From IMG/VR virus record IMGVR_UViG_3300032315_000647, positions 1 through 64,000 of that record: DNA of 64,000 nucleotides; one strand, given 5' to 3'. Positions 35,686-57,527 of the stretch are shown piece by piece. The stretch's first letter is position 1; each line of letters starts with the position of its first letter. The position numbers were made by a program, and so were the translations under genes. This DNA is from a virus. Below the pieces are notes generated by a model. That model searched no databases. It saw only the letters and a program-made list of their open reading frames with translations, and was not told the DNA's origin.

Positions 35686-35984
35686 GCAATCAATTTTTCT
35701 ACACTCGTAAAGAGTTGAAGAGCGGTACACCTGAGAATCCTGTGTACAATGTGTTTCGTGATAGCTTCAATGTGAACAAGGTGATACGCACCGTAGCTAT
35801 TGAAGATGGTAGAGTGATGGTGCTTCTGGATGATTTGCATGAGCGTGCACAAGATGTACCTGACATGGATGCTAAGACTAATAAGATTAAGGGGTATAAG
35901 CGTCAAAGGAACACCTTCCAGAGTGAGATATATTTGGAGGGAGAGGATGTCGAAAGGTTTTACATAACAACATCTATTAATTAA
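35682..35984 (+). CDS. hypothetical protein
   Basis: ORF track; coupled at both ends. Confidence 0.65.
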   Translation: MSNQFFYTRKELKSGTPENPVYNVFRDSFNVNKVIRTVAIEDGRVMVLLDDLHERAQDVPDMDAKTNKIKGYKRQRNTFQSEIYLEGEDVERFYITTSIN

Positions 35985-36979
35985 TGAGACCTATTTTCTT
36001 CTACTGGGATGGTGGGATAAGCAATAGTAGGATGAAAGTCTTACAAGATTGTATGTATTCTACAAGAGTGCACAATCCTGAATGTCCTATTGTATTAGTG
36101 AGCAATAGTATATCAAGCAGTTCGTTTGATGACACTTATAGAATAAGTGTTATGAAATGGGACAGATCATTGATAATGCAATCTCCATTTCCAAAGGATA
36201 AGATTGATCTCTATCTGGATGGTGATAGGTGTATTACAGGTTATAGAGAGCTTTCTGATTTAATAAGATTGGCAGTTCTTTATAGATATGGTGGTTCCTA
36301 CATAGATACAGACGATCTTTGCATCAAACCTATTCCAGTAGAAGAAAATATTATTTGTCGTTCGTACGATCCTCACACTGCACATTACAATCTCGTAACT
36401 CCTGAAGATTGTATTCCTGGAGTGTACAGAGAAATACGTGGGTATGATCACATCAACTTCTTTCCAAGAAACGACTGTTGGTTAAACTTTGTACCAAAGC
36501 ATCCTTTGATACGTGATATATTAAGCAACCCTAAACTAAATGGGATAAACAAACCTGTTTATATTGGGGACGGATTCTCATGGCAATCTCTTACATTAGA
36601 GGCATGTATGAAATACATCATGCACATAAATGACATATTCAGAACATCTCTTACACTTCTCTATCTATTTGAGGATTTTGTGTCAGCAAGTTCTTTCTGG
36701 GACAGGTGTCATCATGGAGGAGAAATGTGTGATTTGTACAATGAAATATTTCCTGATCTTAAGGAATATGAATGGGGATTCTATAAGTGCACTAAAGACG
36801 TAGCAGAGAGATTCCTAGAAACAGTGATAGACAAATATCCTCATCTGTCACACATGTGGCTTCATAGAAAGGATGAGAATCCAGAATGGATGTTAGAAGA
36901 CCTAGATGCTGAAGGTAAGTATGCTGTATCTACATGGATTTATAAAATTCAAAAAGACAAAATAAAGAGCTATATATGA
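35984..36979 (+). CDS. glycosyltransferase, GT32/DXD sugar-binding family
   Basis: IFFYW; SDLIRLAVLYRYGGSYIDTD. Confidence 0.85.
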   Translation: MRPIFFYWDGGISNSRMKVLQDCMYSTRVHNPECPIVLVSNSISSSSFDDTYRISVMKWDRSLIMQSPFPKDKIDLYLDGDRCITGYRELSDLIRLAVLYRYGGSYIDTDDLCIKPIPVEENIICRSYDPHTAHYNLVTPEDCIPGVYREIRGYDHINFFPRNDCWLNFVPKHPLIRDILSNPKLNGINKPVYIGDGFSWQSLTLEACMKYIMHINDIFRTSLTLLYLFEDFVSASSFWDRCHHGGEMCDLYNEIFPDLKEYEWGFYKCTKDVAERFLETVIDKYPHLSHMWLHRKDENPEWMLEDLDAEGKYAVSTWIYKIQKDKIKSYI

Positions 36980-37668
36980 TTTCCGTATTGACACTAACAT
37001 ACAAGAGACCTCATCTTTTAGAAGAAGCTATTGAATCATTTCTTAGACAATACACCACTCATCCAAAGGAAATGGTTATCATAAACGATAACAAAGATGT
37101 AGACTATGTTTACAATCATCCTGATGTAACAATCATCAATTGTAAAGAAAGGTTCTCATCTGTATCTAAAAAACTTCAATGGGGATTTAGTCAGTGTAAG
37201 TATGATTACATTTACAGACTGGACGATGATGATTTGTTAACAGAAAATGGGTTACAGAAAGCTTGTGATTACATCATCAACAATCCAGGATATGATATAT
37301 ACAGAGCTTCTGGTTTCTATTTCTTTGTGAATAATAAACTAGATGGGTGGACAACTAGTATCAATAATGGAAACATCTATAGCAAAAGCTTTGTTGAAAG
37401 AATTGAGTTTCCTGATACATGTATAGGAGAAGATGCAGACATCACGTTCCATAAAGGAGGAACTTGGTGGGAACCAAAAGAGAAAGATGCAACAATGATC
37501 TACCGTTGGGGAATGGGAACACTTCACATATCAGGGATGGGGAATCAACCTAATGACATCATCTTAAACAAGGCTGATAAAGTGTTAGACAATAGAGTGG
37601 GTACAATAACGCTACATCCAAAGTTTTTATCAGATTATTATGAACAAATAAAAAAAGCCCCTATTTAG
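36976..37668 (+). CDS. glycosyltransferase family 2
   Basis: ISVL..TYKRP.LLEEAIESFLRQ, EMVIIND, YIYRLDDDD, GED. Confidence 0.88.
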   Translation: MISVLTLTYKRPHLLEEAIESFLRQYTTHPKEMVIINDNKDVDYVYNHPDVTIINCKERFSSVSKKLQWGFSQCKYDYIYRLDDDDLLTENGLQKACDYIINNPGYDIYRASGFYFFVNNKLDGWTTSINNGNIYSKSFVERIEFPDTCIGEDADITFHKGGTWWEPKEKDATMIYRWGMGTLHISGMGNQPNDIILNKADKVLDNRVGTITLHPKFLSDYYEQIKKAPI

Positions 37669-37681
37669 AGGCTTTTCTTTT
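37650..37681. terminator. bidirectional terminator at the convergence of the early and late gene blocks
   Basis: A-run AAAAGCC...GGCTTTT T-run. Confidence 0.65.
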
Positions 37682-37758
37682 ATATTGCTTCCAAAGAATA
37701 GCTGTTCTAGACCAACTATTCACCCTGTTGTGCATCGTTGAGAGGCATGTGAAGCTAA

Positions 37759-37896
37759 TTATTTAGAAAGTCTTTTCTGTTTCATAGGCCATTGAGGACT
37801 CTTGAGTCTGAGTTTCGTATCAGCCTCTTTCATATAATTGTCCTTTGGTCTAGGATTGTTCACCTTTGGAGCCTTTCTTGGTTTGCCACTTTTCAT
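37759..37896 (-). CDS. small basic protein (45 aa)
   Basis: Own translation MKSGKPRKAPKVNNPRPKDNYMKE...; TAATG coupled. Confidence 0.6.
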   Translation of the reverse strand: MKSGKPRKAPKVNNPRPKDNYMKEADTKLRLKSPQWPMKQKRLSK

Positions 37897-38288
37897 TAGC
37901 AACCATTTTTACACTTCTTCATACCACCTTTACCACTAGTGTTCTTACCAATAGTGCGACCATAAGTAGACAAACGAGTGGATGTGCTACTCTTAGAAGG
38001 AGAAAGAGTTGCTCCATTACGAGCTTTCTTAATCTTACCACCTTTACGCATACCTCCTACTTCAGGAACTTCGGGTCTCAGTTTAGCCATATTCTTCTGG
38101 AGATATTCTTTACCACGTTCTGAACGAGTTGCTCTTTCTACTACTCTTTTAGTGACACGTTCAGCCCTATCAGGATTCTTAGCACTCAACCTACCAATCC
38201 TTTTAAGTTGCCCACGCCTAAGGTAAACCTTCTTACCACCTTGAGCCTTTTCACCATCAGCTCCGCTTTTAGCAGCAGTCTTTTTCAT
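37896..38288 (-). CDS. Lys/Arg-rich protein with KxGGK-type motifs
   Basis: ORF track; KAQGGKK, MRKGGKIKKARNG. Confidence 0.7.
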   Translation of the reverse strand: MKKTAAKSGADGEKAQGGKKVYLRRGQLKRIGRLSAKNPDRAERVTKRVVERATRSERGKEYLQKNMAKLRPEVPEVGGMRKGGKIKKARNGATLSPSKSSTSTRLSTYGRTIGKNTSGKGGMKKCKNGC

Positions 38289-38296
38289 TGTATATA

Positions 38297-38629
38297 TTAT
38301 TTAGATTTTTTTAGTTTACCACCATTCTTAATGACACCACGTCCTTTAAGAACATCAGCACGAGTCACTTTACCATCTCCTGTGAGATCAGGAAAGCTCT
38401 TTCCAGACTTAGCTTTCATTATACCACCACTCTTCATTTTCTTCTTAGGAGCAGGTTTAGCTTTGGCTTTAGTTTTATTATAAGTGCTAGGCCCTACCAC
38501 ATCTTGCAAAGCAGATCTAGGAATCATTTTACCAGGAAACATCTCACTAGGAACAGAATCTACAGCAGCCTTTTTCTTTGCAGGGCTCATTATCTTAGTT
38601 CCTTTCTGAGCCTTCTTAATTGTTTTCAT
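38297..38629 (-). CDS. Lys-rich protein with an EF-hand/dockerin-like loop
   Basis: DLTGDGKVTRAD; MKSGG and KNGGK motifs. Confidence 0.7.
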   Translation of the reverse strand: MKTIKKAQKGTKIMSPAKKKAAVDSVPSEMFPGKMIPRSALQDVVGPSTYNKTKAKAKPAPKKKMKSGGIMKAKSGKSFPDLTGDGKVTRADVLKGRGVIKNGGKLKKSK

Positions 38630-38650
38630 TACTATCTATAATTTTAATTG

Positions 38651-38932
38651 TTAACAATTCCATTTACGAAGAGACTTATTAATCCTGCTGTTGGGATCAT
38701 TAGCAGTTTTAGCAGAGGTGAGGCGCTTCTTCATACCAGACATTCTAGCACAAAATGATTTACGTCTACTAGCAGCTTTACTTCCTGGTTTAAGTTTGGA
38801 AGGTTTAGTAGTGACAGCAGTTTTGAGTTTGGATCCAGGGTTAGCTTTTCTATAGGAAGCAACACCTTTAGCATTCAATCCTCCAGAAGGATTCTTACCC
38901 TCTTTTCTTTGCCAAGCTGGACTCTTTGCCAT
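38651..38932 (-). CDS. DUF6321-like basic phage protein
   Basis: AWQRKEGKNPSGGLNAKG, RRKSFCARM, DPNSRINKSLRKWNC. Confidence 0.75.
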   Translation of the reverse strand: MAKSPAWQRKEGKNPSGGLNAKGVASYRKANPGSKLKTAVTTKPSKLKPGSKAASRRKSFCARMSGMKKRLTSAKTANDPNSRINKSLRKWNC

Positions 38933-38934
38933 AT

Positions 38935-39093
38935 CTATTTCTTTTTAGCTTTAGCCATCTTCTTGAATGTCTTAGCAAGAGCCTTAGCTCTTCCTGTACA
39001 TCCAGGCTTTGTAATAGGGGTACATTTACCTTCAGTTCCTCTACGTTTAATAGAGGCTGTGGCTTTCTGTATCCACTTTTTGTCTGTAGCCAT
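38935..39093 (-). CDS. small basic protein (52 aa)
   Basis: Own translation MATDKKWIQKATASIKRRGTEGKCTPITKPGCTGRAKALAKTFKKM... Confidence 0.65.
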   Translation of the reverse strand: MATDKKWIQKATASIKRRGTEGKCTPITKPGCTGRAKALAKTFKKMAKAKKK

Positions 39094-39095
39094 GA

Positions 39096-39242
39096 CTATT
39101 TCTTTTTAACCTTTCCACCCTTTTTCATATTACCAAGAGTGCGTTCTTGCACCTTTGTCCAAGCACCCTTGGGATCAACCATAGGGGCTTTCTTGGTGGT
39201 TTTTGTTACACCACCAGCTTGTGCCTTTTTTAACTTTGCCAT
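39096..39242 (-). CDS. small basic protein (48 aa)
   Basis: Own translation MAKLKKAQAGG...MKKGGKVKKK. Confidence 0.65.
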   Translation of the reverse strand: MAKLKKAQAGGVTKTTKKAPMVDPKGAWTKVQERTLGNMKKGGKVKKK

Positions 39243-39472
39243 TATGCTTCAGTTTTCAGGAGTTCGTCCTTGCTGTTAGTAAGGAAGTTTTTAGCCAAAT
39301 AAGCAACAGCTGCCTTACCAGCAACAACAGCAATATCCAGAAGTTGCTGTACAGTGGGAAGAGAACCTGCATCAAGAATAGTGTAAATGCCTTGTGTAAT
39401 AACAAGCAGTACAGCTACAACAATACCGTTAGACAGATCCTTAAAATTCAGATTGAGAAAACCGCTTTTCAT
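39242..39472 (-). CDS. small membrane protein, possible holin
   Basis: Two hydrophobic segments; DL..G.VVAV; AYLAKNFLT. Confidence 0.6.
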   Translation of the reverse strand: MKSGFLNLNFKDLSNGIVVAVLLVITQGIYTILDAGSLPTVQQLLDIAVVAGKAAVAYLAKNFLTNSKDELLKTEA

Positions 39473-39484
39473 ATATTATAGTTT

Positions 39485-39652
39485 TTATTTACCTTTTGCC
39501 TTTATCTTACGCTCCTGTTTGAGCATAGCTGCTGTAGGCTTTTTACCAGACTTACCAGCAGCTTTGTTTTTCTTAGCTGCTGCACGAATGTTATCCCAAA
39601 GTCCTCTTTGAGAAACACTTCCGTCAGCACGCTTCATCATTTGTTTTGCCAT
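39485..39652 (-). CDS. small basic protein (55 aa)
   Basis: Own translation MAKQMMKRADGSVSQRGLWDNIRA...KKPTAAMLKQERKIK. Confidence 0.65.
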   Translation of the reverse strand: MAKQMMKRADGSVSQRGLWDNIRAAAKKNKAAGKSGKKPTAAMLKQERKIKAKGK

Positions 39653-39658
39653 AACACA

Positions 39659-39904
39659 TTATTTAGACATGCTAAGAACTCTAGGTTCTTCAGCAGTTTC
39701 TTTAACAATACCAGCTTCTACAGCTGATGCAAGAGCACGTTCAACAGCTTGATTTGCTTCACTAATCTGAAGAATACGTGCAGCTTCTTCTGTGCTTAAT
39801 ATAGAACGAAATGCATTTAAAATCATACCGAATTCAGAACCTGTCAATTCAAACTTGTCTTGAGGAGTCCATGTGTACCTTTTACTTGGATCATAAGATG
39901 CCAT
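39659..39904 (-). CDS. hypothetical protein
   Basis: ORF track; has its own promoter. Confidence 0.65.
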   Translation of the reverse strand: MASYDPSKRYTWTPQDKFELTGSEFGMILNAFRSILSTEEAARILQISEANQAVERALASAVEAGIVKETAEEPRVLSMSK

Positions 39905-39909
39905 AAAAT

Positions 39910-40233
39910 TTATTTTTTGGTTTGAACAAAATTATGTATAGGACTTGAATCTACCAAATTTATTTCAAAGGCTATTGTTGCAGACGTTTTGATACTCTTA
40001 GACAAGTTGAGCTTTATATGGAAGATGTTATGTAGTTTGAGTATTTCTTCCAATAGCATTGGGTTATATTTAGGAAGACTAGGTACTAGTCTAAAGTGAT
40101 ATGAAGTTGGTGTTTTGGTTATCTCAAGAGTGCTTAGTTCATCTACAGAGTCAATCACTCCCTCTAGATGTGCAAAATAAACCATTTCATTATCGGGCAT
40201 CACTTCAGGGAAGAACCTCTTGTTGACAACCAT
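39910..40233 (-). CDS. hypothetical protein
   Basis: ORF track; TAATG coupled. Confidence 0.6.
   Translation of the reverse strand: MVVNKRFFPEVMPDNEMVYFAHLEGVIDSVDELSTLEITKTPTSYHFRLVPSLPKYNPMLLEEILKLHNIFHIKLNLSKSIKTSATIAFEINLVDSSPIHNFVQTKK
39927..39958 (-). promoter_or_regulatory. Bacteroidota promoter
   Basis: Minus strand TTTG-N20-TAATTTTG. Confidence 0.6.
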
Positions 40234-40637
40234 TAGGATAGAGTTAGTAGATATTTTGTTTTAGCTGCTTCTCCACTTAGCGCATCAGCTAAATTAGCTA
40301 TATCGTGATAGCTGTTTGATTCAGCATATCTTTTTAAGTTACTAGAGAAGTCCATAAGTGCTGTGACAACTGAATTAGAGTCTGCACTACTCAATGCTTC
40401 TATTGTATATACACCAGGACGCTTACCTGTATAACCCATAAGCTTTTCTATCACACCATCTTTAAAGTCATGTACATAATCATACAATCCTCCAAGAGCT
40501 TGATGCTCAGCATAACTCTTTGTCTGCCAATGCAATAGATGTAGTTGCTCATGGAAATATGTAAGCTTCCCAGCTATTGTTTCCAAGTTTAGTTCTCCTG
40601 ATTTCATCATCTCTTCAGGGAATAATGATTTTGCCAT
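40233..40637 (-). CDS. ferritin/Dps-like protein (DUF5856-type)
   Basis: QLHLLHWQTKSYAEHQALG.LYD......D..IE..MG; KTKYLLTL. Confidence 0.8.
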   Translation of the reverse strand: MAKSLFPEEMMKSGELNLETIAGKLTYFHEQLHLLHWQTKSYAEHQALGGLYDYVHDFKDGVIEKLMGYTGKRPGVYTIEALSSADSNSVVTALMDFSSNLKRYAESNSYHDIANLADALSGEAAKTKYLLTLS

Positions 40638-40651
40638 GTTGTTTGGTTTTA

Positions 40652-40924
40652 TTATCCAGGACTAGTTGTTGTTGTAGTTGTAGTAACAGGTCTAGTTGTT
40701 GTTGTGGTAGTTGTGCTAGTAGAAGTGCTAGTAGTAGTAGTTGTACTTGTGCTACTAGTAGATGTTGTAGTTGTTGTTGGATTACAACACTCATAAGCAT
40801 CAATTTCCTCCCAGTTACCTACAGCAGGCTTAAACCTATTGAGGATTAAACTACCAGAGATTACACGACCTGTACCATCATAACGTACAAATGCTTTTAA
40901 CGGTCTTTTATTTATACTTGCCAT
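40652..40924 (-). CDS. small protein with a mucin-like poly-Thr/Ser tail (paralog of 40937)
   Basis: KRPLKAFVRYDGTGR...KP.VGNW.EI.AYECCNP followed by about 40 aa of T/S. Confidence 0.8.
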   Translation of the reverse strand: MASINKRPLKAFVRYDGTGRVISGSLILNRFKPAVGNWEEIDAYECCNPTTTTTSTSSTSTTTTTSTSTSTTTTTTTRPVTTTTTTTSPG

Positions 40925-40936
40925 ATTATATTAGTT

Positions 40937-41212
40937 TTAAAGGGCTGTTGTAGTTGTGGTGGTAGTGGTTAGTTCTGCAGTGGTTGTGGTAGTAGTGGTA
41001 GTAGGAGTTCTAGTAGTACTAGTTGTAGTAGTAGTAGGTACACCTGTGGTGGTAGTAGTGGTAGTAGGATTGCAGCACTCATATGCTGGTATCTCTACCC
41101 AATTACCAACCTTAGGTTTCTTTCTTCTTAGAATCAGGCTGCTAGGAACGATTCTCCCAGTACCATCAAAGCGTACATAAGCTTTGAGAGGGCGTTTGTC
41201 AATTGATGCCAT
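40937..41212 (-). CDS. small protein with a mucin-like poly-Thr tail (paralog of 40652)
   Basis: KRPLKAYVRFDGTGR...YECCNP followed by poly-Thr. Confidence 0.8.
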   Translation of the reverse strand: MASIDKRPLKAYVRFDGTGRIVPSSLILRRKKPKVGNWVEIPAYECCNPTTTTTTTGVPTTTTTSTTRTPTTTTTTTTAELTTTTTTTTAL

Positions 41213-41214
41213 GA

Positions 41215-42231
41215 TTAGTAATTTAAATTATACTTGTTAAATAATGTTTTCAGTTCATTTGCGTAATACCATGTGCATCTTTTCTTGGAATTCTCATCAT
41301 TTAGAATAACATCTAAATGAGGATCTTTTGAAGGATCTGCACCTGTATGATATTTACCTTTATAGAAACAGTTATAACCATCCATAAAGGTGTTTACAAT
41401 TCCTGCATTATGAAGAATAGGATGAGTTTCTAGTTTTTCCACCATGTCAGGACTCCAACTAAATCCCATTTCAGGAATAATCTTTACATCCTTTCCTCTC
41501 ACCCAAAGATTCCAAAGAACTGCCCACATATCTGCACACCAACTTTGAAATCCTTTATTCTCATTTTCAAAATACAACTTGTTTATATGCTGTAGATATC
41601 TCCTAATCAGTATGCAATCATTCATCACCTTGCTCCAAAAGTCTGCATCTATATTCTTAAGGAGATATTGAGCTCCACCACTATCATCATTCTTTCCCTC
41701 AGCTTCCTCTCTACTAATACCAATTACGCTACCTATCTCAGCAAGGATGTCTCTTGTTTTGTATTCATCAAGTTTTTCAGGAAGTACATCCCTCACCTTG
41801 CTATCAAAATAGGAAGCTCCAATGTAGCTCACTGTATCAGAAACATAACAAACATCATCATTAATAAACTGTTGAACATCAAACTTTTCTGTAAAAAGAA
41901 TGTCTGAGTCACAGTAGAATATAGCTTGGTTGCTTAATTCAGGATGTTCTCTCCAGTGTCTCCATAATGTATAAGGTCGTAACACTGGAATATACACACC
42001 TAATTGTGAACTAATTTGATGTTCATCTTTGTAAAAATGAAACTCAGCTTCTGGATATAAGTCCACTATCTGTTTCCAATTCTCATTCTTCTCTCTAAAG
42101 TTGGGAGTGAACACTAGAACAATTGCTTTGTCTGATTCATTCCTTTTCTTCAGACTTTCCAACCACAGATGCACTTGCCATGTGTAATAAGTGTCATCTG
42201 GCTGAACGCATACATACTTCAGATCCTTCAT
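41215..42231 (-). CDS. GT-A fold glycosyltransferase resembling peptidyl-Ser/Hyp O-glycosyltransferases (GT95/GT96-like)
   Basis: YYTWQ, YIPVLRPY, FYCDSDILF (DxD), GGAQY, WCADMWA, ILHNAG. Confidence 0.65.
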   Translation of the reverse strand: MKDLKYVCVQPDDTYYTWQVHLWLESLKKRNESDKAIVLVFTPNFREKNENWKQIVDLYPEAEFHFYKDEHQISSQLGVYIPVLRPYTLWRHWREHPELSNQAIFYCDSDILFTEKFDVQQFINDDVCYVSDTVSYIGASYFDSKVRDVLPEKLDEYKTRDILAEIGSVIGISREEAEGKNDDSGGAQYLLKNIDADFWSKVMNDCILIRRYLQHINKLYFENENKGFQSWCADMWAVLWNLWVRGKDVKIIPEMGFSWSPDMVEKLETHPILHNAGIVNTFMDGYNCFYKGKYHTGADPSKDPHLDVILNDENSKKRCTWYYANELKTLFNKYNLNY

Positions 42232-42295: not shown

Positions 42296-42442
42296 TTAAG
42301 GTGTTATTGTGGTGGTGGTTGTGGTGGTGAAGTTACCATTTGCTTGAGCTAGTTGACCAGAGATTTTCTCTAGCTGCTTACTAATTTGCCACAACAGATT
42401 CTCTGTAGTGCCCCAACCTATTCCTCTAGATGGTATTGGCAT
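42296..42442 (-). CDS. 48-aa protein with an IPSRxIGW module and poly-Thr tail (not in ORF track)
   Basis: Own translation MPIPSRGIGWGTTENLLWQISKQLEKISGQLAQANGNFTTTTTTTITP; N-terminus paralogous to 42457. Confidence 0.8.
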   Translation of the reverse strand: MPIPSRGIGWGTTENLLWQISKQLEKISGQLAQANGNFTTTTTTTITP

Positions 42443-42456: not shown

Positions 42457-43041
42457 TTATCCAACATTAAATATGGAAAGGTTAACAGATGGAGATGCAG
42501 GTCTAGTTGGATTACTTCCTGCAGCAGTTGGTAAAAGTCTCATACCAGTGGCTTGTGACCACCAATAAAACTTAAGATATTGTCCAGCAGTCAATGGGAT
42601 TGTATCTGTTATTTTTGCAAGTGTCTGATCATTTTGTGCTCCAGTGGTAGTGAATGTAAATGCTGAATTAGGCACAATTACATCATTAACCGTATACCAA
42701 ACAGTTACATTATAATTTGATGCACCACCTGTAAATGCAAGTTGAAGACCAAGACTTAAAAAGTAAGTTCCTGCATTAATAACATCTATTCTATTACTAG
42801 TCAATGTAAACCCATTAGCAATTTGTGTTGAATTAATTAACACCTGATTAGCTGTGGTTGCTCCACCATTTGTTTGTAAGGTGGTATCAAAAAAGGTTGC
42901 AGAATAAAGACTAACTTTTGATGCAGCAATGTTGTCGTTAAGGGTACAGAGCTGACAGCTAGCTTGCTCCATTTGCTTAGCAATCTGCCACAACAGGTTG
43001 TCCTGTGTGCTCCAACCGATCTGTCTTGATGGAATAGCCAT
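42457..43041 (-). CDS. putative virion decoration protein with an IPSRxIGW module and a C1q/BclA-like beta domain
   Basis: F.DTT.QT, NAGTY......QL, VW...N...VPNSA, L.AGQY, P.SPSV. Confidence 0.6.
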   Translation of the reverse strand: MAIPSRQIGWSTQDNLLWQIAKQMEQASCQLCTLNDNIAASKVSLYSATFFDTTLQTNGGATTANQVLINSTQIANGFTLTSNRIDVINAGTYFLSLGLQLAFTGGASNYNVTVWYTVNDVIVPNSAFTFTTTGAQNDQTLAKITDTIPLTAGQYLKFYWWSQATGMRLLPTAAGSNPTRPASPSVNLSIFNVG

Positions 43042-49320: not shown

Positions 49321-50132
49321 TTGTAGTTGAATCTATTAAAATACCATTGAAAGTTATCTTTTATCCATTTACAAACGTCAGCTCCTAATATTTTTTGAGC
49401 ATCGCTTCTTAAAGGTTCCACTTTCTTTCTAATTGTATGATCTCCAAAGATTCCATGAATTTCATCATCTTCCTGTGTCACTTGCTCTACATTATCAAAA
49501 TCATGAATGAAGTCTTCAATTCCAAGATATTGATATAACTGTGTCATTGTTGTCTGTGGATAGAGACACAAGTCTTCATACTTTATAAAATGAATATGTT
49601 TATCAATTCCTTGTCTGAATATTTCATTTAGTCTTTCAATTGCAAGTCCTACAGGAGGACCTGCTAACCATGCATCAATTCTTTTTGGTGTGGTAGTTCC
49701 TTGACCTGTTGTCCAGTTGAGAATCTTATCTTGCTTATCAGGATGTTTCCTAAAGTTTTTCTCCATGCTACAGAAGATATCTCGTAAGTCTCTTACCATA
49801 CAAACTATCTTAGGTTGAGGATATACAAAGTTGAGAAAATCATAATGTATTCCCCATCCTCTAGACTTGTCTAGAATATATCTTTTGTCTGTAATTGCAT
49901 TGTAATATCCTTTAAGACCTTCATGACAAAAGCCTTTAAAAGCTTCCTTCATAATAGCAGGATCTTGAGCTTTGAACTCACCGCTGTCTGTGTAATTAGA
50001 TCTTGCTGCATAAATCAGTTCAAGTACACCGCTGGTAGGAGTACAATAAAAATCAGGTCTCTGTGCAACAATGTTTTGCAAAAGAGTGCTACCAGTTCTT
50101 GGAAGTGAACTCTGAAAGAATATTTTCTCCAT
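49317..50132 (-). CDS. PAPS-dependent sulfotransferase
   Basis: LPRTGSTLL (5'-PSB), DKSR, VRD.RD...S (3'-PB), KYEDL. Confidence 0.88.
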   Translation of the reverse strand: MEKIFFQSSLPRTGSTLLQNIVAQRPDFYCTPTSGVLELIYAARSNYTDSGEFKAQDPAIMKEAFKGFCHEGLKGYYNAITDKRYILDKSRGWGIHYDFLNFVYPQPKIVCMVRDLRDIFCSMEKNFRKHPDKQDKILNWTTGQGTTTPKRIDAWLAGPPVGLAIERLNEIFRQGIDKHIHFIKYEDLCLYPQTTMTQLYQYLGIEDFIHDFDNVEQVTQEDDEIHGIFGDHTIRKKVEPLRSDAQKILGADVCKWIKDNFQWYFNRFNYK

Positions 50133-51014
50133 TTAGTTGGTTTTGAGAGATTCAATTATCTCTTCAGCATTGAATATCTCTGTTTCATTATTATATGGAA
50201 ACTCTACTGGGTTTCCTACAATATTAAACTTCTGTAGGTAACTACCTCTTAAGTCAGGTTCTATAGTGAAAGGATTTGCAAGAATATTATGATTCCAATC
50301 ATATCCAAACACTGTAGGACTATTCACTATCCAACACACTGTTGAAGGAAGTTTATATGCAGCAGCTGTATGTTGAGCAAAGCTATCCATGAATAACCTC
50401 TTATCACTTCTTTCAATAACAGCAGCAATCTCTCTAAAGGTAGCAGTTAAAGTGGTTGTATGTGGAATAAAAGGTTGATTCTCTCTTCTAATTTGCATTA
50501 TAAAATAATCATCCTTCAGAGCATTAACAACATCTTGTGCCACTCCAAATGGAATATCTCTAGACCAACTATATAAAACATCTTGATTCTCAGCTCCTCC
50601 ATTAGTTTGAATAATCAATAGAGGCTTGTCAATATTGAAGTTACGAAGATAGAATTCTCTTTCTCTCTGTGTAATAAACAACTCAGGAGCTTCCCCATCA
50701 TAAGAAAGACCATACATCTCACACCATATTTTAATAAGATGCTCCTCACAATAGAGATGTTTTTTCTCTAGATAAGGATCTTGTAAAAAAAAGTGTTCTG
50801 TAAGTTTATCCTCAATAAAGTCTTTATAGAAATAAGATGTTTCACCAAAGTGTAGTATCCTGTCTATATTAGGGTTACCTCTAAAAACATCAGGAAATCC
50901 AGAAACAACAATCAACAGATGATTTGGATATTTCTTTTTAATAGCAGAGCATACAGCTGTTGCCATAATACTCTTTCCTATTCCTCCGTTAATCTGGAAG
51001 ATTATACGCTTCAT
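50133..51014 (-). CDS. GT9 (ADP-heptose transferase-like) glycosyltransferase
   Basis: GGIGK.IMATAV..AIKK.YP, NPNID, FMDSFAQH.AAA...PSTV.W, FGY..N. Confidence 0.8.
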   Translation of the reverse strand: MKRIIFQINGGIGKSIMATAVCSAIKKKYPNHLLIVVSGFPDVFRGNPNIDRILHFGETSYFYKDFIEDKLTEHFFLQDPYLEKKHLYCEEHLIKIWCEMYGLSYDGEAPELFITQREREFYLRNFNIDKPLLIIQTNGGAENQDVLYSWSRDIPFGVAQDVVNALKDDYFIMQIRRENQPFIPHTTTLTATFREIAAVIERSDKRLFMDSFAQHTAAAYKLPSTVCWIVNSPTVFGYDWNHNILANPFTIEPDLRGSYLQKFNIVGNPVEFPYNNETEIFNAEEIIESLKTN

Positions 51015-51407: not shown

Positions 51408-52112
51408 TTAAATGATTCCAATACTAAACCTATTCTTAAATACATTGAAATTTTGTAACTCCTCATCAGGAGTTAGTGCTCTAGTATAAAAAAGAGCAGT
51501 TCCAATCCTTCCTCTTAGCTGAACACTACTTCCATTACTATTACGATTAATCATCCAAGCATTAGTGAAATTGACAGTTCCTAAGGATCCGTATGTGTTC
51601 GTAATCCTACTAGTATTATTTATTCTAATTGACATAGATAAAGTGGATGTGTCTCTCACTCCTGATACAAAATTCCAAACGTTTTGAGTTAATGTAGCGC
51701 TTGCAGACCTTCCACCACCGTCTGATACCATAGTGATATTACTAGGAGCAGTTGTTGTTAATCCAAATGTGTTCCCACCACTATTACTTGATGTAAATAG
51801 TCCAGCATTGTCATATTGTCCTTCTGTGTACATTATAACAACTTGCATAGTTAATCCTGAAAGACCAGTGTAAGATGCTGCACTGTTTATATTGAATACA
51901 GAAGAGAAAGGTGAGAAGTCACTGAAGTATATACCATTAAAAACATTGGGATAGAACGTAAATGTACCATTCATTGTGGCATCATAACCACTAATCAAAT
52001 CTTTCCAAGTTGTTCCTGTTCCTCCATAAGACCTTGTTTGGGCAGCATCGTACCACAATGCTAGTCCATTAGTAACCACTGGTATTCCTGAACTTGCTGC
52101 TATACCAAGCAT
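51408..52112 (-). CDS. LamG/concanavalin A-like lectin domain virion protein
   Basis: VTNGL.L.YDA....SY.GTGTTW.DL; W.FV.GV; G.IG....YTRALT.DE..QNFN. Confidence 0.8.
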   Translation of the reverse strand: MLGIAASSGIPVVTNGLALWYDAAQTRSYGGTGTTWKDLISGYDATMNGTFTFYPNVFNGIYFSDFSPFSSVFNINSAASYTGLSGLTMQVVIMYTEGQYDNAGLFTSSNSGGNTFGLTTTAPSNITMVSDGGGRSASATLTQNVWNFVSGVRDTSTLSMSIRINNTSRITNTYGSLGTVNFTNAWMINRNSNGSSVQLRGRIGTALFYTRALTPDEELQNFNVFKNRFSIGII

Positions 52113-52121: not shown

Positions 52122-55100
52122 TTAAGCTGTTAAGTTACCAATTAAATACCATTCGTCAGTAGCCACCTTCATAAGTGTTACAGCACCATATTGGGCATTG
52201 AGCTTACGCCAACTGTTAGCGCTTCGCAAAGTTACGCCAGCACAAGCACAAACAGTAGTTTGACCAGCACCATATTGCGTAACATTCAAACAAGTACCAA
52301 TTGGGAAAGCCACTTGACTACATGCTGGAACACATATGTTGTTTGCAGCTCCGACATTCATTTCAACCGTCTTACCAGAATCAGCCAAAACTAATGCATA
52401 AGAAGCAGCTTGTCTATTGAACTGTGTCAGTCCATTAAGTTTACCACAAGAACAAACGTTATTGAAATATGCTGTACAAGCATCAAGACCAGTGAGTCCA
52501 CAGCCCATAACAATTGTATAATTGTTACAAGCTAAACTGCTCTGACCAAATGCTAAGGATCCACAACAGAATGCCTTGTTTGATTGTCCTCCTATAATAG
52601 CACTACTTCTACCAAGAGCACAGTTGTCAAATCCTCCTCCTACACTAGCATAAACACCTGATGCAGAGTTAGCACTACCTCCTGCTACAGTTGCATAAGT
52701 GCCTGCAATATTAACTGCACCCCCACCGACAGTACCGTAGTTTGAACACACACAATTTCGTGATCCACCTCCAACTGTTGCTGCTACAGCTGAACCAGCA
52801 AATGGACATATTAATCTATTTCTGTCTCCACCACCAATAGATCCAAAAGGTGTGTTGACATCTATTATATTACAAAAACCTCCACTTATTACCGAACAAC
52901 AGCTGTTCAGTATATTACAATTACCTCCTCCTATTGTACTATGTACTACATTACAAAGCTTATTTGAAGATCCTCCAACAATAGCTGAATAATATCCACC
53001 GTCAATTGCATTAGTACATCCTGATCCTATTAATGAAAATTGTCCAAAAAGCATTGAGTTGCCCTGACCTGAACTTATTCCAGAACCATTACTGTAAGTT
53101 GATATAGTATTACCATAACCGCCTGATATTACTGATTGACCAGAGAAATTTAATATTAAGTTAAGACTACCTCCTCCAACAGTTGAATCAGTTGAATTAA
53201 TACTGACACAATTTCCACTACCTCCTGAGATTGTTGAATAGTATCCTGAGGCTGTGTTATTACATCCTCCACTAACAGTGGCATAATTTCCTGTAGTGGT
53301 GTTGAGTTGACCACAACGAACACTAGAACCAGTCCCTGCACCAAGTATAATTACAGGCGCACTTCCTGAAAATGATGTACCAGAACTTCCAGAAGTTCCA
53401 GACGTACCAGCCCCTCCAGTAACACCGCTTGTTCCACTAGTTCCACTAGTTCCAGTTCCACCATTAACTCCAGAAGTACCTGATGTACCGTTATTACCAT
53501 TAACTCCAGAGGTACCGCTAGTACCTCTAGTACCTGATGTTCCAGACGTACCTGAAGAACCAGCAGCACCATTAACTCCACTGGTTCCACTCGTACCACT
53601 TGTACCTGCTGCACCAGTTCCACCATTTACACCAGATGTACCTGAAGTTCCTGAAGAACCTGCTGCACCGTTGATTCCTGACGTACCACTAGTTCCATTG
53701 TTACCATTAACACCGCTAGTACCAGATGTTCCATTTACACCAGAGGTTCCAGACGTTCCATTATTACCGTTCACTCCAGAAGTTCCACTTGTTCCCCTAG
53801 TGCCCGATGTTCCTGATGTACCACTTGTTCCAGCAACACCGTTAACACCACTTGTACCTGAAGTGCCAGAACTACCTGCTACACCGTTAACTCCTGAAGT
53901 GCCAGAAGTACCACTGCTTCCAGCTGCACCATTTACTCCTGATGTTCCGCTTGTTCCTGAACTGCCAGCAGCTCCATTAACACCACTAGTCCCACTAGTA
54001 CCATTTACACCCGAAGTACCTGATGTGCCAGCTGCGCCATTCACACCAGACGTTCCACTTGTTCCGTTAACACCTGAAGTTCCTGAAGTTCCGTTCACTC
54101 CACTAGTTCCAGAAGTTCCGTTATTTCCATTCACCCCAGATGTACCAGAGGTTCCTCGTGTACCTGATGTACCAGAAGTCCCTGTTGTACCACTAGTTCC
54201 AGATGTACCAGATGACCCTGCTGCACCGTTAACACCTGATGTACCGCTAGTACCTGATGATCCTGCAGCTCCGTTAGCTCCACTAGTGCCACTTGTTCCA
54301 GATGTTCCATTCACTCCACTTGTACCACTAGTCCCAGAGGTGCCATTATTTCCGTTAACACCAGAGGTCCCAGAAGTCCCTGTAGTACCAGAGGTTCCAC
54401 TAGTACCAGATATACCTGACGTACCGCTACTACCATTTGCACCAGAAGTTCCAGATGTGCCATTCACACCTGAAGTACCGCTCGTTCCTGAAGTGCCGTT
54501 AGCTCCAGATGTCCCAGAGGTTCCATTTATACCAGAAGTTCCGCTAGTTCCATTGTTACCAGAAGTACCAGACGTACCTGTAGTTCCACTAGTGCCAGAC
54601 GTACCATTAATCCCTGAAGTACCACTTGTACCATTAATGCCACTAGTCCCTGATGTACCATTGATTCCACTGGTTCCTGAAGTACCATTGACACCAGAGG
54701 TTCCATTTGTACCGTTGATTCCACTAGTGCCACTCGTTCCTCTAGTTCCACTAGTTCCTGATGTTCCACTAGTTCCATTCACTCCAGAGCTACCCGAAGT
54801 GCCTGTGGTACCACTTGTACCTGAGGTTCCATTGATTCCTGAACTACCAGAAGTACCGTTCACTCCAGACGTACCGCTCGTACCATTAACTCCACTCGTA
54901 CCACTCGTTCCTGATGTGCCAGCTAAGCCTGAAGTACCACTAGTTCCATTAATTCCAGATGTGCCTGATGTACCAGTTGTACCACTAGTGCCATTTAAGC
55001 CTGAAGTTCCAGATGTTCCGTTCGTTCCATTAATTCCAGAAGACCCACTGGTTCCACTTGTGCCATTTATTCCTGACGTGCCACTTGTACCTGAAGAACC

Positions 55101-57527
55101 ATTATTACCAGAAGTGCCACTTGTACCATTTATCCCAGAGCTACCAGATGTCCCACTTGTTCCTGTAACACCACTAGTTCCAGATGTACCGTTTGCGCCT
55201 GAGGTTCCACTTGTTCCATTAGTTCCATTTGCACCTGAAGACCCACTAGAGCCAGATGTTCCGCTGGTTCCATTAGCCCCACTGCTTCCAGAGGTACCGC
55301 TAGTTCCTGTGGTGCCTGAAGTTCCACTGCTACCAGATATTCCACTAGAACCCGAAGTTCCAGAACTTCCACTTGAACCAGATGTACCATTAGTGCCATT
55401 ATTTCCATTAACACCACTAGTTCCACTTGTTCCATTTGCGCCTGACGATCCACTACTTCCACTAGTTCCTGAAGTCCCATTTATTCCTGACGTACCGTTA
55501 GTTCCAGATAAACCTGATGTTCCACTCGTACCTGTGCTGCCTGAAGTTCCAGAGGTACCGTTTATACCAGAGGTCCCACTAGTTCCGTTAATTCCAGATG
55601 AGCCAGAACTGCCAGATGTACCGTTGATTCCAGATGTACCAGACGTTCCGTTTATACCTGAACTACCTGCTGTTCCTGAAGATCCACTAGATCCAGAACT
55701 ACCGTTTGTTCCACTAACACCACTTGTACCTGAGCTACCGTTTGAACCAGAAGTTCCTGATGTCCCATTATTACCGCTAGTTCCAGAGGAACCAGATAAT
55801 CCTGAAGTTCCACTACTACCTGATGAACCACTTGTTCCTGATGTTCCAGGTAAACCATTATTACCTGAAGTTCCACTTGAACCTGAAGTTCCTGAGGTTC
55901 CAGAAGAACCGCTCGTCCCTGTTATACCTGAAGAACCAGATGTTCCTGAAACTCCACTAGTCCCTGAAGACCCACTTATACCAGACGTACCATTAGTTCC
56001 GTTACTACCAGATGTACCAGAAGTTCCGTTGTTTCCTGAAGTTCCACTTGACCCACTGGTTCCAGAACTACCATTTATTCCAGAACTGCCAGATGTTCCA
56101 TTTATTCCTGAGCTTCCGCTCGATCCTGAGGTACCATTTATTCCACTAGTACCAGACGTGCCATTCAATCCTGATGAACCTGAACTACCAGACGTACCAC
56201 TTGTACCATTAGTTCCTGAACTACCTGAGGATCCATTAGTCCCATTTATACCTGAGCTACCACTTGAACCAGATGATCCACTAGTGCCTGAAGTGCCGTT
56301 GTTACCACTCGTGCCAGATGAACCGTTTATTCCTGATGTACCTGAGGTTCCATTAGAACCACTTGTTCCTGAACTTCCACTAGTTCCTGCAGTTCCTGGT
56401 AAACCACTACTTCCACTTGATCCACTTGTTCCTGACAAACCAGATGTACCAGATGTACCATTGGAACCTGAAGAACCACTAGTTCCTGCTGTACCATTAA
56501 TTCCAGATGTCCCACTAGACCCTGAACTACCGCTCGTACCAGCACTACCGTTTATTCCACTTGAACCAGAAGTTCCATTTATACCCGAAGATCCTGATGA
56601 TCCATTAGTACCAGATATTCCACTGCTACCAGATGTACCATTGAGCCCACTTGTTCCAGAGCTACCAGATGTTCCTGAGGTTCCATTACCACCTGAGGTG
56701 CCACTTGATCCGCTAGTGCCAGAGGTTCCTGAAGTGCCACTAGTTCCTGATCCTCCACCACCTGTTATTACCACTTGAGCATCACCACCTCCCAAATCAT
56801 TCACTGTAGCACCTGAGAATGTAATTTTGTCAACGTTAGTCACTGTGGTTGTGCCATCAGTCACTTCAACTATTGAAGATGTCCCACTGCTACCAGAGGT
56901 GCCAGAGGTGCCTCTTGTTCCTGAACTACCTGAACTGCCTGAACTTCCATTTGTGCCTGATACTCCACTTGATCCTGATGTTCCATTGCTACCTGACACA
57001 CCACTAGACCCTGAGGTTCCGTTACTACCTTGTATTCCGCTTATTCCAGAGGATCCAGAAGATCCAGATGTACCATTAGAACCACTCAATCCAGAAGTTC
57101 CTGAACTTCCAGATGTTCCAGCTGTTCCTGATATACCAGAGCTTCCACTAGTGCCGTTAGACCCTGATGTTCCTGATGTTCCTGAGCTACCGCTAGTGCC
57201 TGAACGTCCAGAGGATCCTGATGTACCACTACTTCCTGAACCACCTGATCCTGAACCACCTGATTCACAAACAGCCTCTAGTTTTTGTAATATTACCTCA
57301 AGATTATCATTTGTTCTAATCCCTGTACAGATTAAATTGGGTCCTTCATAGAAGACACAAGTTGCGTTCAATATGACAGGGCATGGCTTTATGGAACACA
57401 GCACTGTAGGTGTTGTGGGTATATTTATAGGAGGGCAGTAAATAGGAACATGGATACTACCAGAAGTACCAGAGGATCCACTAGATCCTGAACCACCATA
57501 AGATAATATAGAAGGTAGTACGTTCAT
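52122..57527 (-). CDS. very long tail/head fibre: Cys-rich N-domain, about 1250 aa of Gly-X-Ser/Thr triplets, beta-helix head, C-terminal adaptor domain
   Basis: Gly at every third residue (GTS/GSS/GIN/GVN); S/T-V/I-S/G-GG-x-x-N repeats; ends TDEWYLIGNL. Confidence 0.85.
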   Translation of the reverse strand: MNVLPSILSYGGSGSSGSSGTSGSIHVPIYCPPINIPTTPTVLCSIKPCPVILNATCVFYEGPNLICTGIRTNDNLEVILQKLEAVCESGGSGSGGSGSSGTSGSSGRSGTSGSSGTSGTSGSNGTSGSSGISGTAGTSGSSGTSGLSGSNGTSGSSGSSGISGIQGSNGTSGSSGVSGSNGTSGSSGVSGTNGSSGSSGSSGTRGTSGTSGSSGTSSIVEVTDGTTTVTNVDKITFSGATVNDLGGGDAQVVITGGGGSGTSGTSGTSGTSGSSGTSGGNGTSGTSGSSGTSGLNGTSGSSGISGTNGSSGSSGINGTSGSSGINGSAGTSGSSGSSGTSGINGTAGTSGSSGSNGTSGTSGLSGTSGSSGSSGLPGTAGTSGSSGTSGSNGTSGTSGINGSSGTSGNNGTSGTSGSSGSSGSSGINGTNGSSGSSGTNGTSGTSGSSGSSGLNGTSGTSGINGTSGSSGSSGINGTSGSSGINGSSGTSGSSGTSGNNGTSGTSGSNGTNGTSGISGSSGTSGVSGTSGSSGITGTSGSSGTSGTSGSSGTSGNNGLPGTSGTSGSSGSSGTSGLSGSSGTSGNNGTSGTSGSNGSSGTSGVSGTNGSSGSSGSSGTAGSSGINGTSGTSGINGTSGSSGSSGINGTSGTSGINGTSGTSGSTGTSGTSGLSGTNGTSGINGTSGTSGSSGSSGANGTSGTSGVNGNNGTNGTSGSSGSSGTSGSSGISGSSGTSGTTGTSGTSGSSGANGTSGTSGSSGSSGANGTNGTSGTSGANGTSGTSGVTGTSGTSGSSGINGTSGTSGNNGSSGTSGTSGINGTSGTSGSSGINGTNGTSGTSGLNGTSGTTGTSGTSGINGTSGTSGLAGTSGTSGTSGVNGTSGTSGVNGTSGSSGINGTSGTSGTTGTSGSSGVNGTSGTSGTSGTRGTSGTSGINGTNGTSGVNGTSGTSGINGTSGTSGINGTSGTSGINGTSGTSGTTGTSGTSGNNGTSGTSGINGTSGTSGANGTSGTSGTSGVNGTSGTSGANGSSGTSGISGTSGTSGTTGTSGTSGVNGNNGTSGTSGTSGVNGTSGTSGTSGANGAAGSSGTSGTSGVNGAAGSSGTSGTSGTTGTSGTSGTRGTSGTSGVNGNNGTSGTSGVNGTSGTSGVNGTSGTSGVNGAAGTSGTSGVNGTSGTSGVNGAAGSSGTSGTSGVNGAAGSSGTSGTSGVNGVAGSSGTSGTSGVNGVAGTSGTSGTSGTRGTSGTSGVNGNNGTSGTSGVNGTSGTSGVNGNNGTSGTSGINGAAGSSGTSGTSGVNGGTGAAGTSGTSGTSGVNGAAGSSGTSGTSGTRGTSGTSGVNGNNGTSGTSGVNGGTGTSGTSGTSGVTGGAGTSGTSGSSGTSFSGSAPVIILGAGTGSSVRCGQLNTTTGNYATVSGGCNNTASGYYSTISGGSGNCVSINSTDSTVGGGSLNLILNFSGQSVISGGYGNTISTYSNGSGISSGQGNSMLFGQFSLIGSGCTNAIDGGYYSAIVGGSSNKLCNVVHSTIGGGNCNILNSCCSVISGGFCNIIDVNTPFGSIGGGDRNRLICPFAGSAVAATVGGGSRNCVCSNYGTVGGGAVNIAGTYATVAGGSANSASGVYASVGGGFDNCALGRSSAIIGGQSNKAFCCGSLAFGQSSLACNNYTIVMGCGLTGLDACTAYFNNVCSCGKLNGLTQFNRQAASYALVLADSGKTVEMNVGAANNICVPACSQVAFPIGTCLNVTQYGAGQTTVCACAGVTLRSANSWRKLNAQYGAVTLMKVATDEWYLIGNLTA
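53372..57255 (-). repeat. 9-nt-period degenerate coding tandem repeat (Gly-Thr/Ser-Ser)
   Basis: Hundreds of GGN-ACN-(TCN/AGY) units, interrupted once at about 56760-56875. Confidence 0.9.

Follow-up and report, generated by a model that had tools for sequence, protein, structure and literature searches.

The first 64 kb (hereafter the window) of a complete 114,745-bp virus genome, record IMGVR_UViG_3300032315_000647, were analysed here for a set of glycosylation genes lying between positions 35,984 and 57,527. We consider it rather probable that with these genes the phage glycosylates its own particle proteins in the cytoplasm, a transferase of 338 amino acids (aa), named GT338, acting on threonine (Thr) tags. 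Domain identities, gene order and co-occurrence of genes were established by comparison with related genomes and with distant cultured phages. An earlier reading of the letters (the original prediction) had announced about seven glycosyltransferase domains, two methyltransferases, one APS (adenosine 5'-phosphosulfate) kinase and one sulfotransferase, and all of them, the kinase as an APS-kinase-like protein, were found where it had placed them.

In the mechanism that we propose, the region would be a cytoplasmic protein-glycosylation kit used by a phage of lytic type for its own particle. At its core, GT338 would put sugars on Thr runs, which would serve as portable acceptor tags. The tag bearers would be two mini-proteins of a family with a conserved 47-aa N-domain (N47), a 48-aa protein and three proteins encoded outside the window: a 391-aa protein, a 365-aa fibre and a 2112-aa virion protein. 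On the comparisons made here, this GT338/poly-Thr pair is the only conserved part of the region, and the remainder a variable accessory set.

A glycosyltransferase gene coupled to poly-threonine proteins

The core genes of the region are as follows.

41215-42231, minus strand: GT338, a soluble GT-A glycosyltransferase of 338 aa, GT8-like (retaining) in fold, with D108 and D110 forming its DxD motif
40937-41212, minus strand: 91-aa N47 paralogue with a poly-Thr tail
40652-40924, minus strand: 90-aa mini-protein, a 47-aa N-domain ending in ECCNP followed by a 40-aa poly-Thr/Ser tail; proposed acceptor
42296-42442, minus strand: 48-aa mini-protein, the third poly-Thr protein (MPIPSRGIGW...LLWQISKQLE, then TTTTTTTITP)
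42457-43041, minus strand: 194-aa paralogue of the 48-aa protein, in which a globular C-domain replaces the Thr tail

GT338 matched phrog_4417 at 4.9e-54; it matched no Pfam or NCBIfam family at E ≤ 0.01, Glyco_transf_8 included, and no PDB entry by sequence at E ≤ 10. Its AlphaFold2 model, built on a 62-sequence alignment, has a predicted local distance difference test score (pLDDT) of 97.3, and VIA fold comparison gave glycogenin a Z of 14.6 (root-mean-square deviation 3.6 over 228 aligned residues), followed by LgtC (14.1), Skp1 alpha-GalT (14.0), UGGT (13.9) and GlyE (13.2). Both D108 and D110 are invariant among the 62 sequences, which share 30-47% identity. Judged on the model, GT338 is GT8-type by fold, not by sequence membership, and we propose it as a candidate poly-Thr-directed protein O-glycosyltransferase.

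At least 286 relatives of GT338 were found in IMG/VR, many on contigs of 105-116 kb, and 80 of these loci were examined, with flanks reaching 10 kb. In all 80, GT338 is followed by one to four N47-family genes; in the window, 2 nt separate the GT338 stop from the start of the first one. The conserved N-domain (…LKAYVRFDGSGRIVAGSLILRRKKPKVGKW.EI.AYECCN) is continued either by T7 blocks spaced by two to four residues or by a Thr linker and a varied globular domain. Homologues of the 90-aa mini-protein were present in 77/80 loci, directly after the GT338 gene, and those of the 91-aa protein, whose N-domain is 75% identical to that of its 90-aa paralogue, in 78. Most loci have a second family (IPSR.IGW…LLWQI.KQLE) preceding GT338, again with a Thr tail or a globular domain: homologues of the 48-aa protein lie directly upstream of GT338 in 68 loci, and the 194-aa form, which is 63% identical to the 48-aa protein across the first 35 residues and has no match in Pfam or PHROG, was found in 57. 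Overall, GT338 has an open reading frame (ORF) with a Thr run next to it, at most 2.5 kb away and in the same orientation, in 79/80 loci, and the density of poly-Thr ORFs is 4.95 per 10 kb within this distance versus 0.08 beyond it, a difference of about 60-fold.

The three poly-Thr-tailed small proteins of the original prediction are thus all present, the third being the 48-aa ORF. Over the whole genome, poly-Thr runs are confined to these mini-proteins and to the three particle-module proteins outside the window, among which the 391-aa protein carries its run as a C-terminal tail; its gene belongs to the capsid block, at a distance of two genes from that of the major capsid protein. No paralogue of the mini-protein N-domains was found elsewhere in the genome.

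The C-terminal part of N47 proteins varies from one relative to another, being a Thr tail, a Thr linker with small domains rich in Cys, or else a domain that is about 200 aa long and ends in …LTQASVDHVLITLDNNGL.GGY.DLSGGTNAAPS (variants seen in loci L004, L007, L010, L011, L020, L045, L051 and L081). As far as their sequences tell, these cassettes resemble interchangeable modules, for display or for binding, set on a shared anchor. In some relatives a GIY-YIG-type homing endonuclease (…IYIGVT…) lies between GT338 and the first N47 gene; such insertions splitting the otherwise fixed pair were located at L015:10005-10712, L046:10005-10412 and L053:8509-9219, and in L054.

Distant carriers of the enzyme and a matched control

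Because the 80 related loci belong to a single phage family, distant carriers of the enzyme weigh more. Using tblastn, GT338 homologues of 22-34% identity were found in 77 cultured phage records, from phages infecting Enterococcus, Lactobacillus, Lactococcus, Staphylococcus, Clostridium, Arcanobacterium and Chryseobacterium; none of the 77 is an actinophage. An IMG/VR search with two distant GT338 representatives returned no related loci. The comparison of lineages drew on 11 records of cultured phages, four records as controls and 16 genome loci. Runs of at least five Thr were present in particle-gene proteins of 9 of the 11 records read (phiFL1A, iLp84, 1706, bIL285, Semele, phiCTP1, VPE25, RQ1 and MA9V-3), and in the remaining two, LP65 and SAC12B, the gene adjoining the enzyme contains Thr-rich repeats.

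In these carriers most Thr runs form the C-terminal tail of a head or tail-tube protein, and the enzyme is often encoded directly behind the tail tube. Tails were found on the head and tail-tube proteins of phiFL1A, on the head, tail-tube and 125-aa proteins of iLp84, on the portal, head and tail tube of phiCTP1, on the tail tube of both 1706 and VPE25, and on gp074/075 of Semele. In Staphylococcus phage RQ1 and Chryseobacterium phage MA9V-3, Thr-tailed proteins lie beside the enzyme in the particle module.

A matched control was provided by tail-tube orthologues 50-60% identical to the phiFL1A tail tube. When the enzyme is present, the tail tube ends in poly-Thr (…TTTTTSTTTTTTSSTTTTTTTQASSK in phiFL1A, …SVTTTTTTSHA in R3.3); when it is absent, poly-Thr was found in none of four tail tubes (Javan47, 315.6, phiJL-1, ATCC8014). 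Phage R3.3, with the enzyme, belongs to the same genus as phiJL-1 and ATCC8014, which are without it.

The 16 genome loci are those of Bacteroidota genomes with GT338 relatives. The three closest (60-65% identity) are phage-like contigs in metagenome-assembled genomes (MAGs) of Cytophagales, Saprospiraceae and Sediminibacterium, and two of the three show Thr genes.

A protein heptosyltransferase domain and a collagen-like fibre

A first accessory set is made of a four-enzyme fusion and a methyltransferase, encoded on the plus strand within the particle-gene arm, and is considered here with a fibre and the gene adjoining it.

44794-48216, plus strand: 1140-aa four-enzyme fusion
Fusion domain 1, aa 18-105: S-adenosylmethionine (SAM) methyltransferase, by Pfam
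Fusion domain 2, about aa 170-450: GT-A glycosyltransferase with an invariant DSD
Fusion domain 3, about aa 450-790: GT4/GT-B glycosyltransferase (Glycos_transf_1)
Fusion domain 4, aa 811-1138, nt 47224-48216: TibC/AAH-type protein O-heptosyltransferase
48213-48881, plus strand: FkbM-family SAM methyltransferase, 222 aa, its start overlapping the fusion stop
52122-57527, minus strand: collagen-like fibre, 1801 aa (Pfam Collagen, 535.8 bits)
51408-52112, minus strand: Laminin_G_3 (concanavalin-like) protein, 234 aa, adjoining the fibre gene (Pfam, 32.3 bits)

The last domain of the fusion matched TIGR04414 ("autotransporter strand-loop-strand O-heptosyltransferase") with 276.8 bits for a cut-off of 200, over positions 27-373 of the 374 of the profile, and TibC itself (PDB 4rb4) at E 2.3e-50. 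All four iron-finger cysteines, which are Cys339, 342, 358 and 370 in TibC (PMC4358343), are kept (CnGCW...WCP...FEC versus CyGCW...WCP...FEC in TibC). The alignment starts at TibC residue 61, so that the N-terminal beta-barrel (residues 1-97, needed for activity) is partly covered; the segment preceding the TibC-type domain in the fusion is the GT4 domain. A model of the middle part of the fusion has a pLDDT of 84, and its GT-A fold matches LH3, GlyE, GT6 and UGGT. The FkbM-family protein scored 34.9 bits with Pfam Methyltransf_21 and 56.3 bits with TIGR01444 (cut-off 37.7).

The 1801-aa protein had been described as a GTS-repeat fibre. The fibre is indeed there; its repeat is the collagen triplet G-X-Y rather than plain GTS, and makes up 1266 of the 1801 aa in three runs, the longest of 1128 aa. 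Thr sits at X and Ser or Asn at Y, with GTS occurring 198 times and GSS 77 times. Pro is found in 2 of the 422 triplets, and the triple helix is a predicted one. The C-terminal part is rich in Gly, Ser and Asn, and in Cys. The adjoining Laminin_G_3 protein matched the PHROG annotation "virion structural protein" at 1.2e-5 and is probably a fibre-associated or binding module.

A survey of accessory genes covered 27 related genomes, 86-116 kb in size. In 21 of them a TibC-type domain scored above cut-off, either fused (705-1181 aa) or alone (357-361 aa), and collagen repeats were detected in 24. Collagen matches number 0, 0, 0, 1, 2 and 2 in the six genomes that lack the TibC-type domain, versus 1-38 in the rest (Mann-Whitney p 2e-4, uncorrected for relatedness); several of the six seem to form one clade, which leaves few independent events. 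That the TibC-type domain modifies the collagen-like fibre is a reasonable possibility, to which we give somewhat less than an even chance. This first set would then carry out a TibC-type heptosylation, most likely on Ser of the 1801-aa fibre or of its C-terminal repeat part, with two further transferases extending the glycans and with O-methylation. Taken together, the tie of GT338 to poly-Thr tracts and, for the TibC-type domain, its family and its co-variation with collagen-like fibres point to protein substrates rather than to polysaccharide or DNA.

A sulfotransferase and an APS-kinase-like protein

A second accessory set follows the fibre genes on the same strand.

50133-51014, minus strand: GT9-like (heptosyltransferase-like) protein, 293 aa, an assignment at the level of a lead
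49317-50132, minus strand: PAPS-type (3'-phosphoadenosine 5'-phosphosulfate) sulfotransferase, 271 aa (Sulfotransfer_3, 69.3 bits, cut-off 27; Sulfotransfer_1, 41.4 bits)
48856-49320, minus strand: 154-aa P-loop kinase, APS-kinase-like, its lid shortened; no further gene of the minus-strand particle arm follows it at this place

These three genes abut or overlap (51014→50133, 50132→49317, 49320→48856). The GT9-like protein had no match in Pfam, and in NCBIfam only RfaQ at E 0.007; its neighbours in a structure atlas are viral clusters in which 26-46% of the members carry PF01075 (TM 0.82). The translated sulfotransferase has both PAPS motifs, PRTGST for the 5'-phosphosulfate-binding (5'-PSB) and RDLRDIFCS for the 3'-phosphate-binding (3'-PB) site. 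Its best named match, a weak one, is the Nod-factor sulfotransferase NoeE, and its nearest solved relatives are the tyrosylprotein sulfotransferases TPST1/2 (E 0.002, over the PAPS-binding half only). The nearest phage relatives, at 25-29% identity, come from the large Synechococcus phages S-SKS1, S-SCSM1 and S-SRM01 and from marine single-cell virus contigs, so that phages outside the family of the window have sulfotransferases of this type as well. The kinase scored 50.9 bits with Pfam APS_kinase (cut-off 21.1), and compared with 2yvu it keeps GQPGSGKT, IDGD, YSREGR and SLVYPYKEAR, corresponding to the P-loop, DGD, FSxExR and SxISPY motifs.

Sulfotransferase and kinase were found in exactly the same 10 of the 27 genomes (Fisher p 1e-7, uncorrected for relatedness). 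In related loci showing both, their genes are close together, and the GT9-like gene is present in most. This second set would add a sugar and sulfate either a sugar or a tyrosine, with PAPS made from host APS. It is no better than a tentative suggestion that the pair places its sulfate on a glycan of the particle, and not on tyrosine or some other target.

Two glycosyltransferases in the replication arm

The two remaining transferases lie at the end of the plus-strand replication (early/middle) arm.

35984-36979, plus strand: GT32-type GT-A glycosyltransferase (DXD region), 331 aa (Pfam Gly_transf_sug, 45.3 bits, cut-off 23; Caps_synth, 27.1)
36976-37668, plus strand: GT2 glycosyltransferase, 230 aa (Pfam Glycos_transf_2, 56.5 bits), its start overlapping the GT32 stop

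The enzymes had been predicted to sit among late genes, which applies to all the others, found among or beside particle genes, but not to these two. The GT32 of the window was not found in the 80 related loci, whose flanks reach only 10 kb; a GT2 gene, usually about 30% identical, occupies the same site in 45 of them. Both may belong to the glycosylation kit, or have another target.

One such target could be the phage DNA, whose bases would be glycosylated against restriction. GT32 and GT2 do adjoin replication genes, and the transferases of DNA-hypermodifying phages are diverse, as cited in PMC12619734. The complete genome, on the other hand, has no thymidylate-synthase-like gene that could act as hydroxymethylase, which makes the hydroxymethyl-base route to DNA sugars unlikely, and no other base-modifying enzyme was seen among the early genes scanned. 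Moreover, GT338 and the TibC-type domain sit with particle genes, and DNA glycosylation leaves the sulfotransferase and the Thr tracts unexplained. DNA modification was rejected as the main explanation on these two gene absences, and we regard it as very improbable.

Points against particle glycosylation, and two other readings

Several observations weigh against a glycosylation of particle proteins directed at Thr tags. All of the evidence for it is synteny and homology. As the 80 relatives all come from a single phage family, counts among them are not independent; there are some eight to ten independent lineages. The N47 mini-proteins are only putative particle components. In bIL285, the gene beside the enzyme is without a Thr tail, and the tail is 1.3 kb off. 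Ten of the Bacteroidota homologues (27-33% identity) are N-domains of chromosomal proteins of 480-830 aa with no Ser/Thr tracts nearby, so that the GT338 fold alone does not imply a protein acceptor. The protein predicted to be an APS kinase, which keeps the motifs of one, is short-lidded, aligns to the NCBIfam models by residues 1-105 only, and stays below their cut-offs (62 versus 127 bits for NF004041, 45 versus 138.7 for TIGR00455). No NTP_transferase-family sugar-nucleotide enzyme and no ATP sulfurylase were found in the complete genome, and sugar donors and APS must therefore come from the host. Three Bacteroidota MAGs holding related contigs have GmhA-like and RfaE-like genes, a hint at ADP-heptose too weak to use, as is the presence of CysD and APS kinase in one of these three incomplete MAGs. 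Finally, the accessory genes are patchy among relatives, and polysaccharide clusters are where GT2, GT4, GT9, GT32, FkbM and sulfotransferases are typically seen.

The chromosomal N-domains (L105, L107-L115) come from Chitinophaga, Sphingobacterium, Mucilaginibacter, Ferruginibacter and others. Such proteins are apparently a cellular form of the enzyme whose role differs from that of the phage form, and the link with Thr tags, as traced by sequence comparison, holds for the stand-alone phage form. Their contexts without Thr tracts would also fit a reading in which the whole set modifies a host envelope polysaccharide (lipopolysaccharide, capsule or exopolysaccharide) and the Thr/Ser-rich proteins are flexible linkers or spacers. 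Phage glycosyltransferases that change the host serotype are well known (PMC12619734). We think this reading improbable: the siphophage enzyme gene lies between tail-tube and tail-chaperone genes, Thr tails come and go with the enzyme, the family of the TibC-type domain is one that modifies proteins, every enzyme of the set is soluble, and no integrase turned up among the genes scanned.

The patchiness of the accessory genes around a fixed core pair speaks for another reading, that of a split function. GT338, and perhaps the TibC-like domain, would act on particle proteins, and the other enzymes would, during infection, alter a glycan of the host or produce a small glycoconjugate bearing sulfate or methyl groups, for example for a superinfection block or a change of the cell surface before lysis. 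The position of GT32 and GT2 in the replication-gene arm, the affinities of the accessory families with polysaccharide clusters and the weak match of the sulfotransferase to a Nod-factor enzyme agree with such a split. It is harder to reconcile with the joining of four domains, a protein heptosyltransferase included, in one polypeptide, and with the GT9-like, sulfotransferase and kinase genes adjoining the fibre genes on the same strand. In addition, no flippase, polymerase or lipid-carrier priming transferase was found among the proteins scanned, and no membrane segment in the eight enzyme proteins (highest 19-residue Kyte-Doolittle mean 1.26, where the neighbouring lysis proteins score 2.67 and 1.84). 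We hold a split function to be unlikely, though a more serious contender than envelope modification.

The proposal that the phage glycosylates its own particle is thus partly supported, by comparison, through GT338 with Thr tags and the TibC-type domain with collagen, but not in the form of a single pathway of initiation, extension, methylation and sulfation. The core pair alone is conserved: the TibC-type domain is in 21/27 genomes, the sulfation pair in 10/27, and, within flanks reaching only 10 kb, GT32 in 0/80 loci and FkbM in only 3/80. Likewise, the co-occurrence of enzymes with Ser/Thr-repeat genes across relatives was recovered for GT338 with poly-Thr and for TibC with collagen fibres, the remaining enzymes being patchy. 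All enzymes forming one ordered pathway is less likely than a set of modules. From the genes we infer the acceptors, the sugars, the order of steps and the presence of the products in the particle, as well as a benefit, which may be shielding, stiffening or adhesion.

Genome setting and neighbouring genes

The plus-strand arm of the genome, from 1 to 37.7 kb, encodes DNA polymerase, helicases, primase, RIIA/RIIB, ribonucleotide reductase, UvsX and PhoH. Particle genes lie on the minus strand; the series starts near 108 kb, runs to 37.9 kb and begins with the following (positions in the complete record).

105788-107815, minus strand: terminase
103206-105788, minus strand: portal
100215-101768, minus strand: major capsid protein

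After the capsid gene come fibre and large virion proteins, a 4256-aa ORF, a 1757-aa protein and the 1801-aa fibre, then the GT9-like, sulfotransferase and kinase genes, the plus-strand insert formed by the fusion and FkbM, and finally the lysis genes, GT338 and the Thr-tailed mini-proteins. A promoter and terminator scan of 37.5-52.5 kb gave sites no commoner than in shuffled sequence, so that operon structure is read from gene spacing alone; the tight spacing of GT338 with N47, and of the GT9-like, sulfotransferase and kinase genes, points to co-expression with neighbouring genes.

The record has a 32-bp terminal overlap (window 1-32, genome 114714-114745) that resembles the 3' end of a tRNA (GGTTCGAATCC T-arm), which suggests that it was cut within a tRNA-like gene; ARAGORN found zero tRNAs on the window. 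A strong hairpin at 37650-37679, with T-runs on both flanks, lies where the two arms converge and is like a two-way terminator. Just downstream of the mini-protein operon, 37896-39652 on the minus strand encodes a series of seven small proteins, 48-130 aa long, that are strongly basic and rich in Lys and Gly (38935-39093, 39096-39242 and 39485-39652 are examples). Several of these are kept in relatives, a 93-aa member being up to 96% identical, and they may be DNA-condensing or internal particle proteins. A Dps/ferritin-like protein (40233-40637, minus strand; PHROG "starvation-inducible regulator", 8e-15) is encoded directly after the mini-protein genes, as in 69 of the 80 relatives. The 1757-aa protein (57641-62914, minus strand), with weak GNAT and exonuclease-family matches, and the 4256-aa ORF (genome 62916-75686, minus strand) are both encoded within the particle-gene arm, perhaps as cargo enzymes that are packaged.

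A nucleotide search found no close cultured relative, and the sole match of the capsid protein was to one distant cyanophage. Binning and the taxonomy of homologues give Bacteroidota as the host, as a lead only, and beyond this probable host nothing was found in support of the idea that a sulfated coat would act as bait for SusC/SusD.

Comparison with known glycosylation systems

The closest case is that of mycobacteriophages Che8, Corndog and Myrna, whose virions are O-glycosylated, with glycans reported at the C-termini of capsid and tail-tube proteins (Freeman et al. 2023, Cell Host Microbe 31:1216, as summarised in PMC12619734). Within the literature searched, it is the only phage precedent found. 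Common to both are phage-encoded transferases and a modification of the phage's own particle in the cytoplasm, here inferred from the genes; as in mycobacteriophages, a phage transferase gene lies in the particle module and major particle proteins carry S/T-rich C-terminal tails. The enzyme family appears, however, to be another one, with none of the 77 GT338-homologue records from an actinophage, the mycobacteriophage enzymes themselves not having been compared. The acceptor here would be a homopolymeric Thr tag, present also on dedicated mini-proteins and fibres, and the phage of the window adds a TibC-type heptosyltransferase, methylases and a sulfation pair.

TibC and AAH are soluble cytoplasmic enzymes of proteobacteria that hyperglycosylate Ser of repetitive fibrous autotransporter adhesins, TibA and AIDA-I (PMC4358343). 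The C-terminal 330 aa of the fusion match this family above cut-off and have the four iron-finger cysteines; in the family the donor is ADP-heptose, the acceptor is Ser of an autotransporter beta-helix and the enzyme is a dodecamer, donor and dodecamer being predicted for the phage domain by homology only. The phage enzyme differs in being phage-borne and fused to three other enzymes (alone in some relatives), and its likely acceptor is a collagen-like fibre, not an autotransporter; no autotransporter family was found among the Pfam matches of the scanned proteins.

With the streptococcal serine-rich-repeat adhesins (GtfA/B, Gtf3, GlyE), the common traits are soluble GT8-type GT-A enzymes, a cytoplasmic location and long Ser/Thr repeats, and GlyE came up as a fold match to the GT-A domain of GT338 as well as to that of the fusion. 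The similarity is at the level of the fold only (Z 13, about 12% identity), there is here no GtfA/B-type initiating pair and no accessory Sec system, and the proposed products are particle proteins, not adhesins.

Mimivirus and chloroviruses glycosylate the fibrils and capsids of their particles independently of host secretion, with their own transferases, methylases and collagen-like proteins. Self-encoded transferases, methylases and collagen-like proteins are what the window has in common with giant viruses (PMC4691112). Giant viruses differ in having eukaryotic hosts and their own sugar-nucleotide synthesis, whereas the phage of the window is without an NTP_transferase-family enzyme. BclA, in the exosporium of Bacillus anthracis, has a Pro-poor G-X-T collagen repeat with O-glycosylated Thr and a globular C-terminal domain, and forms surface filaments. 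The Pro-poor collagen repeat of the 1801-aa fibre seems to resemble it, but BclA is a bacterial spore protein modified by different transferases.

Significance

In the literature searched, no paper dealt with Thr tags in connection with the GT338 family, with a TibC-type enzyme in a phage, or with phage particles bearing sulfate. If the reading is right, the family of the window would add to this literature a phage enzyme of the TibC/AAH kind that heptosylates proteins and is linked to collagen-like fibres, as well as two genes dedicated to sulfation; if sulfated fibres were confirmed, they would form the first sulfated glycoprotein coat on a phage particle. We also raise, as a possible but doubtful generalization, that poly-Thr tag and GT8-like transferase form a code common to phages of Bacillota and Bacteroidota, extended here to methylated and sulfated glycans on collagen-like fibres.

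The core enzyme is present in phages that have been cultured, which makes the central claim directly testable. If it is true, many phages, well-studied ones of Enterococcus, Lactococcus, Lactobacillus and Staphylococcus among them, would tag their particle proteins with a simple sequence that one small enzyme coats with sugar. This would bear on phage stability, on adsorption, on antibody recognition in phage therapy and on the identification of particle proteins by mass spectrometry, and tag and enzyme would together make a two-part tool for O-glycosylation in the cytoplasm.

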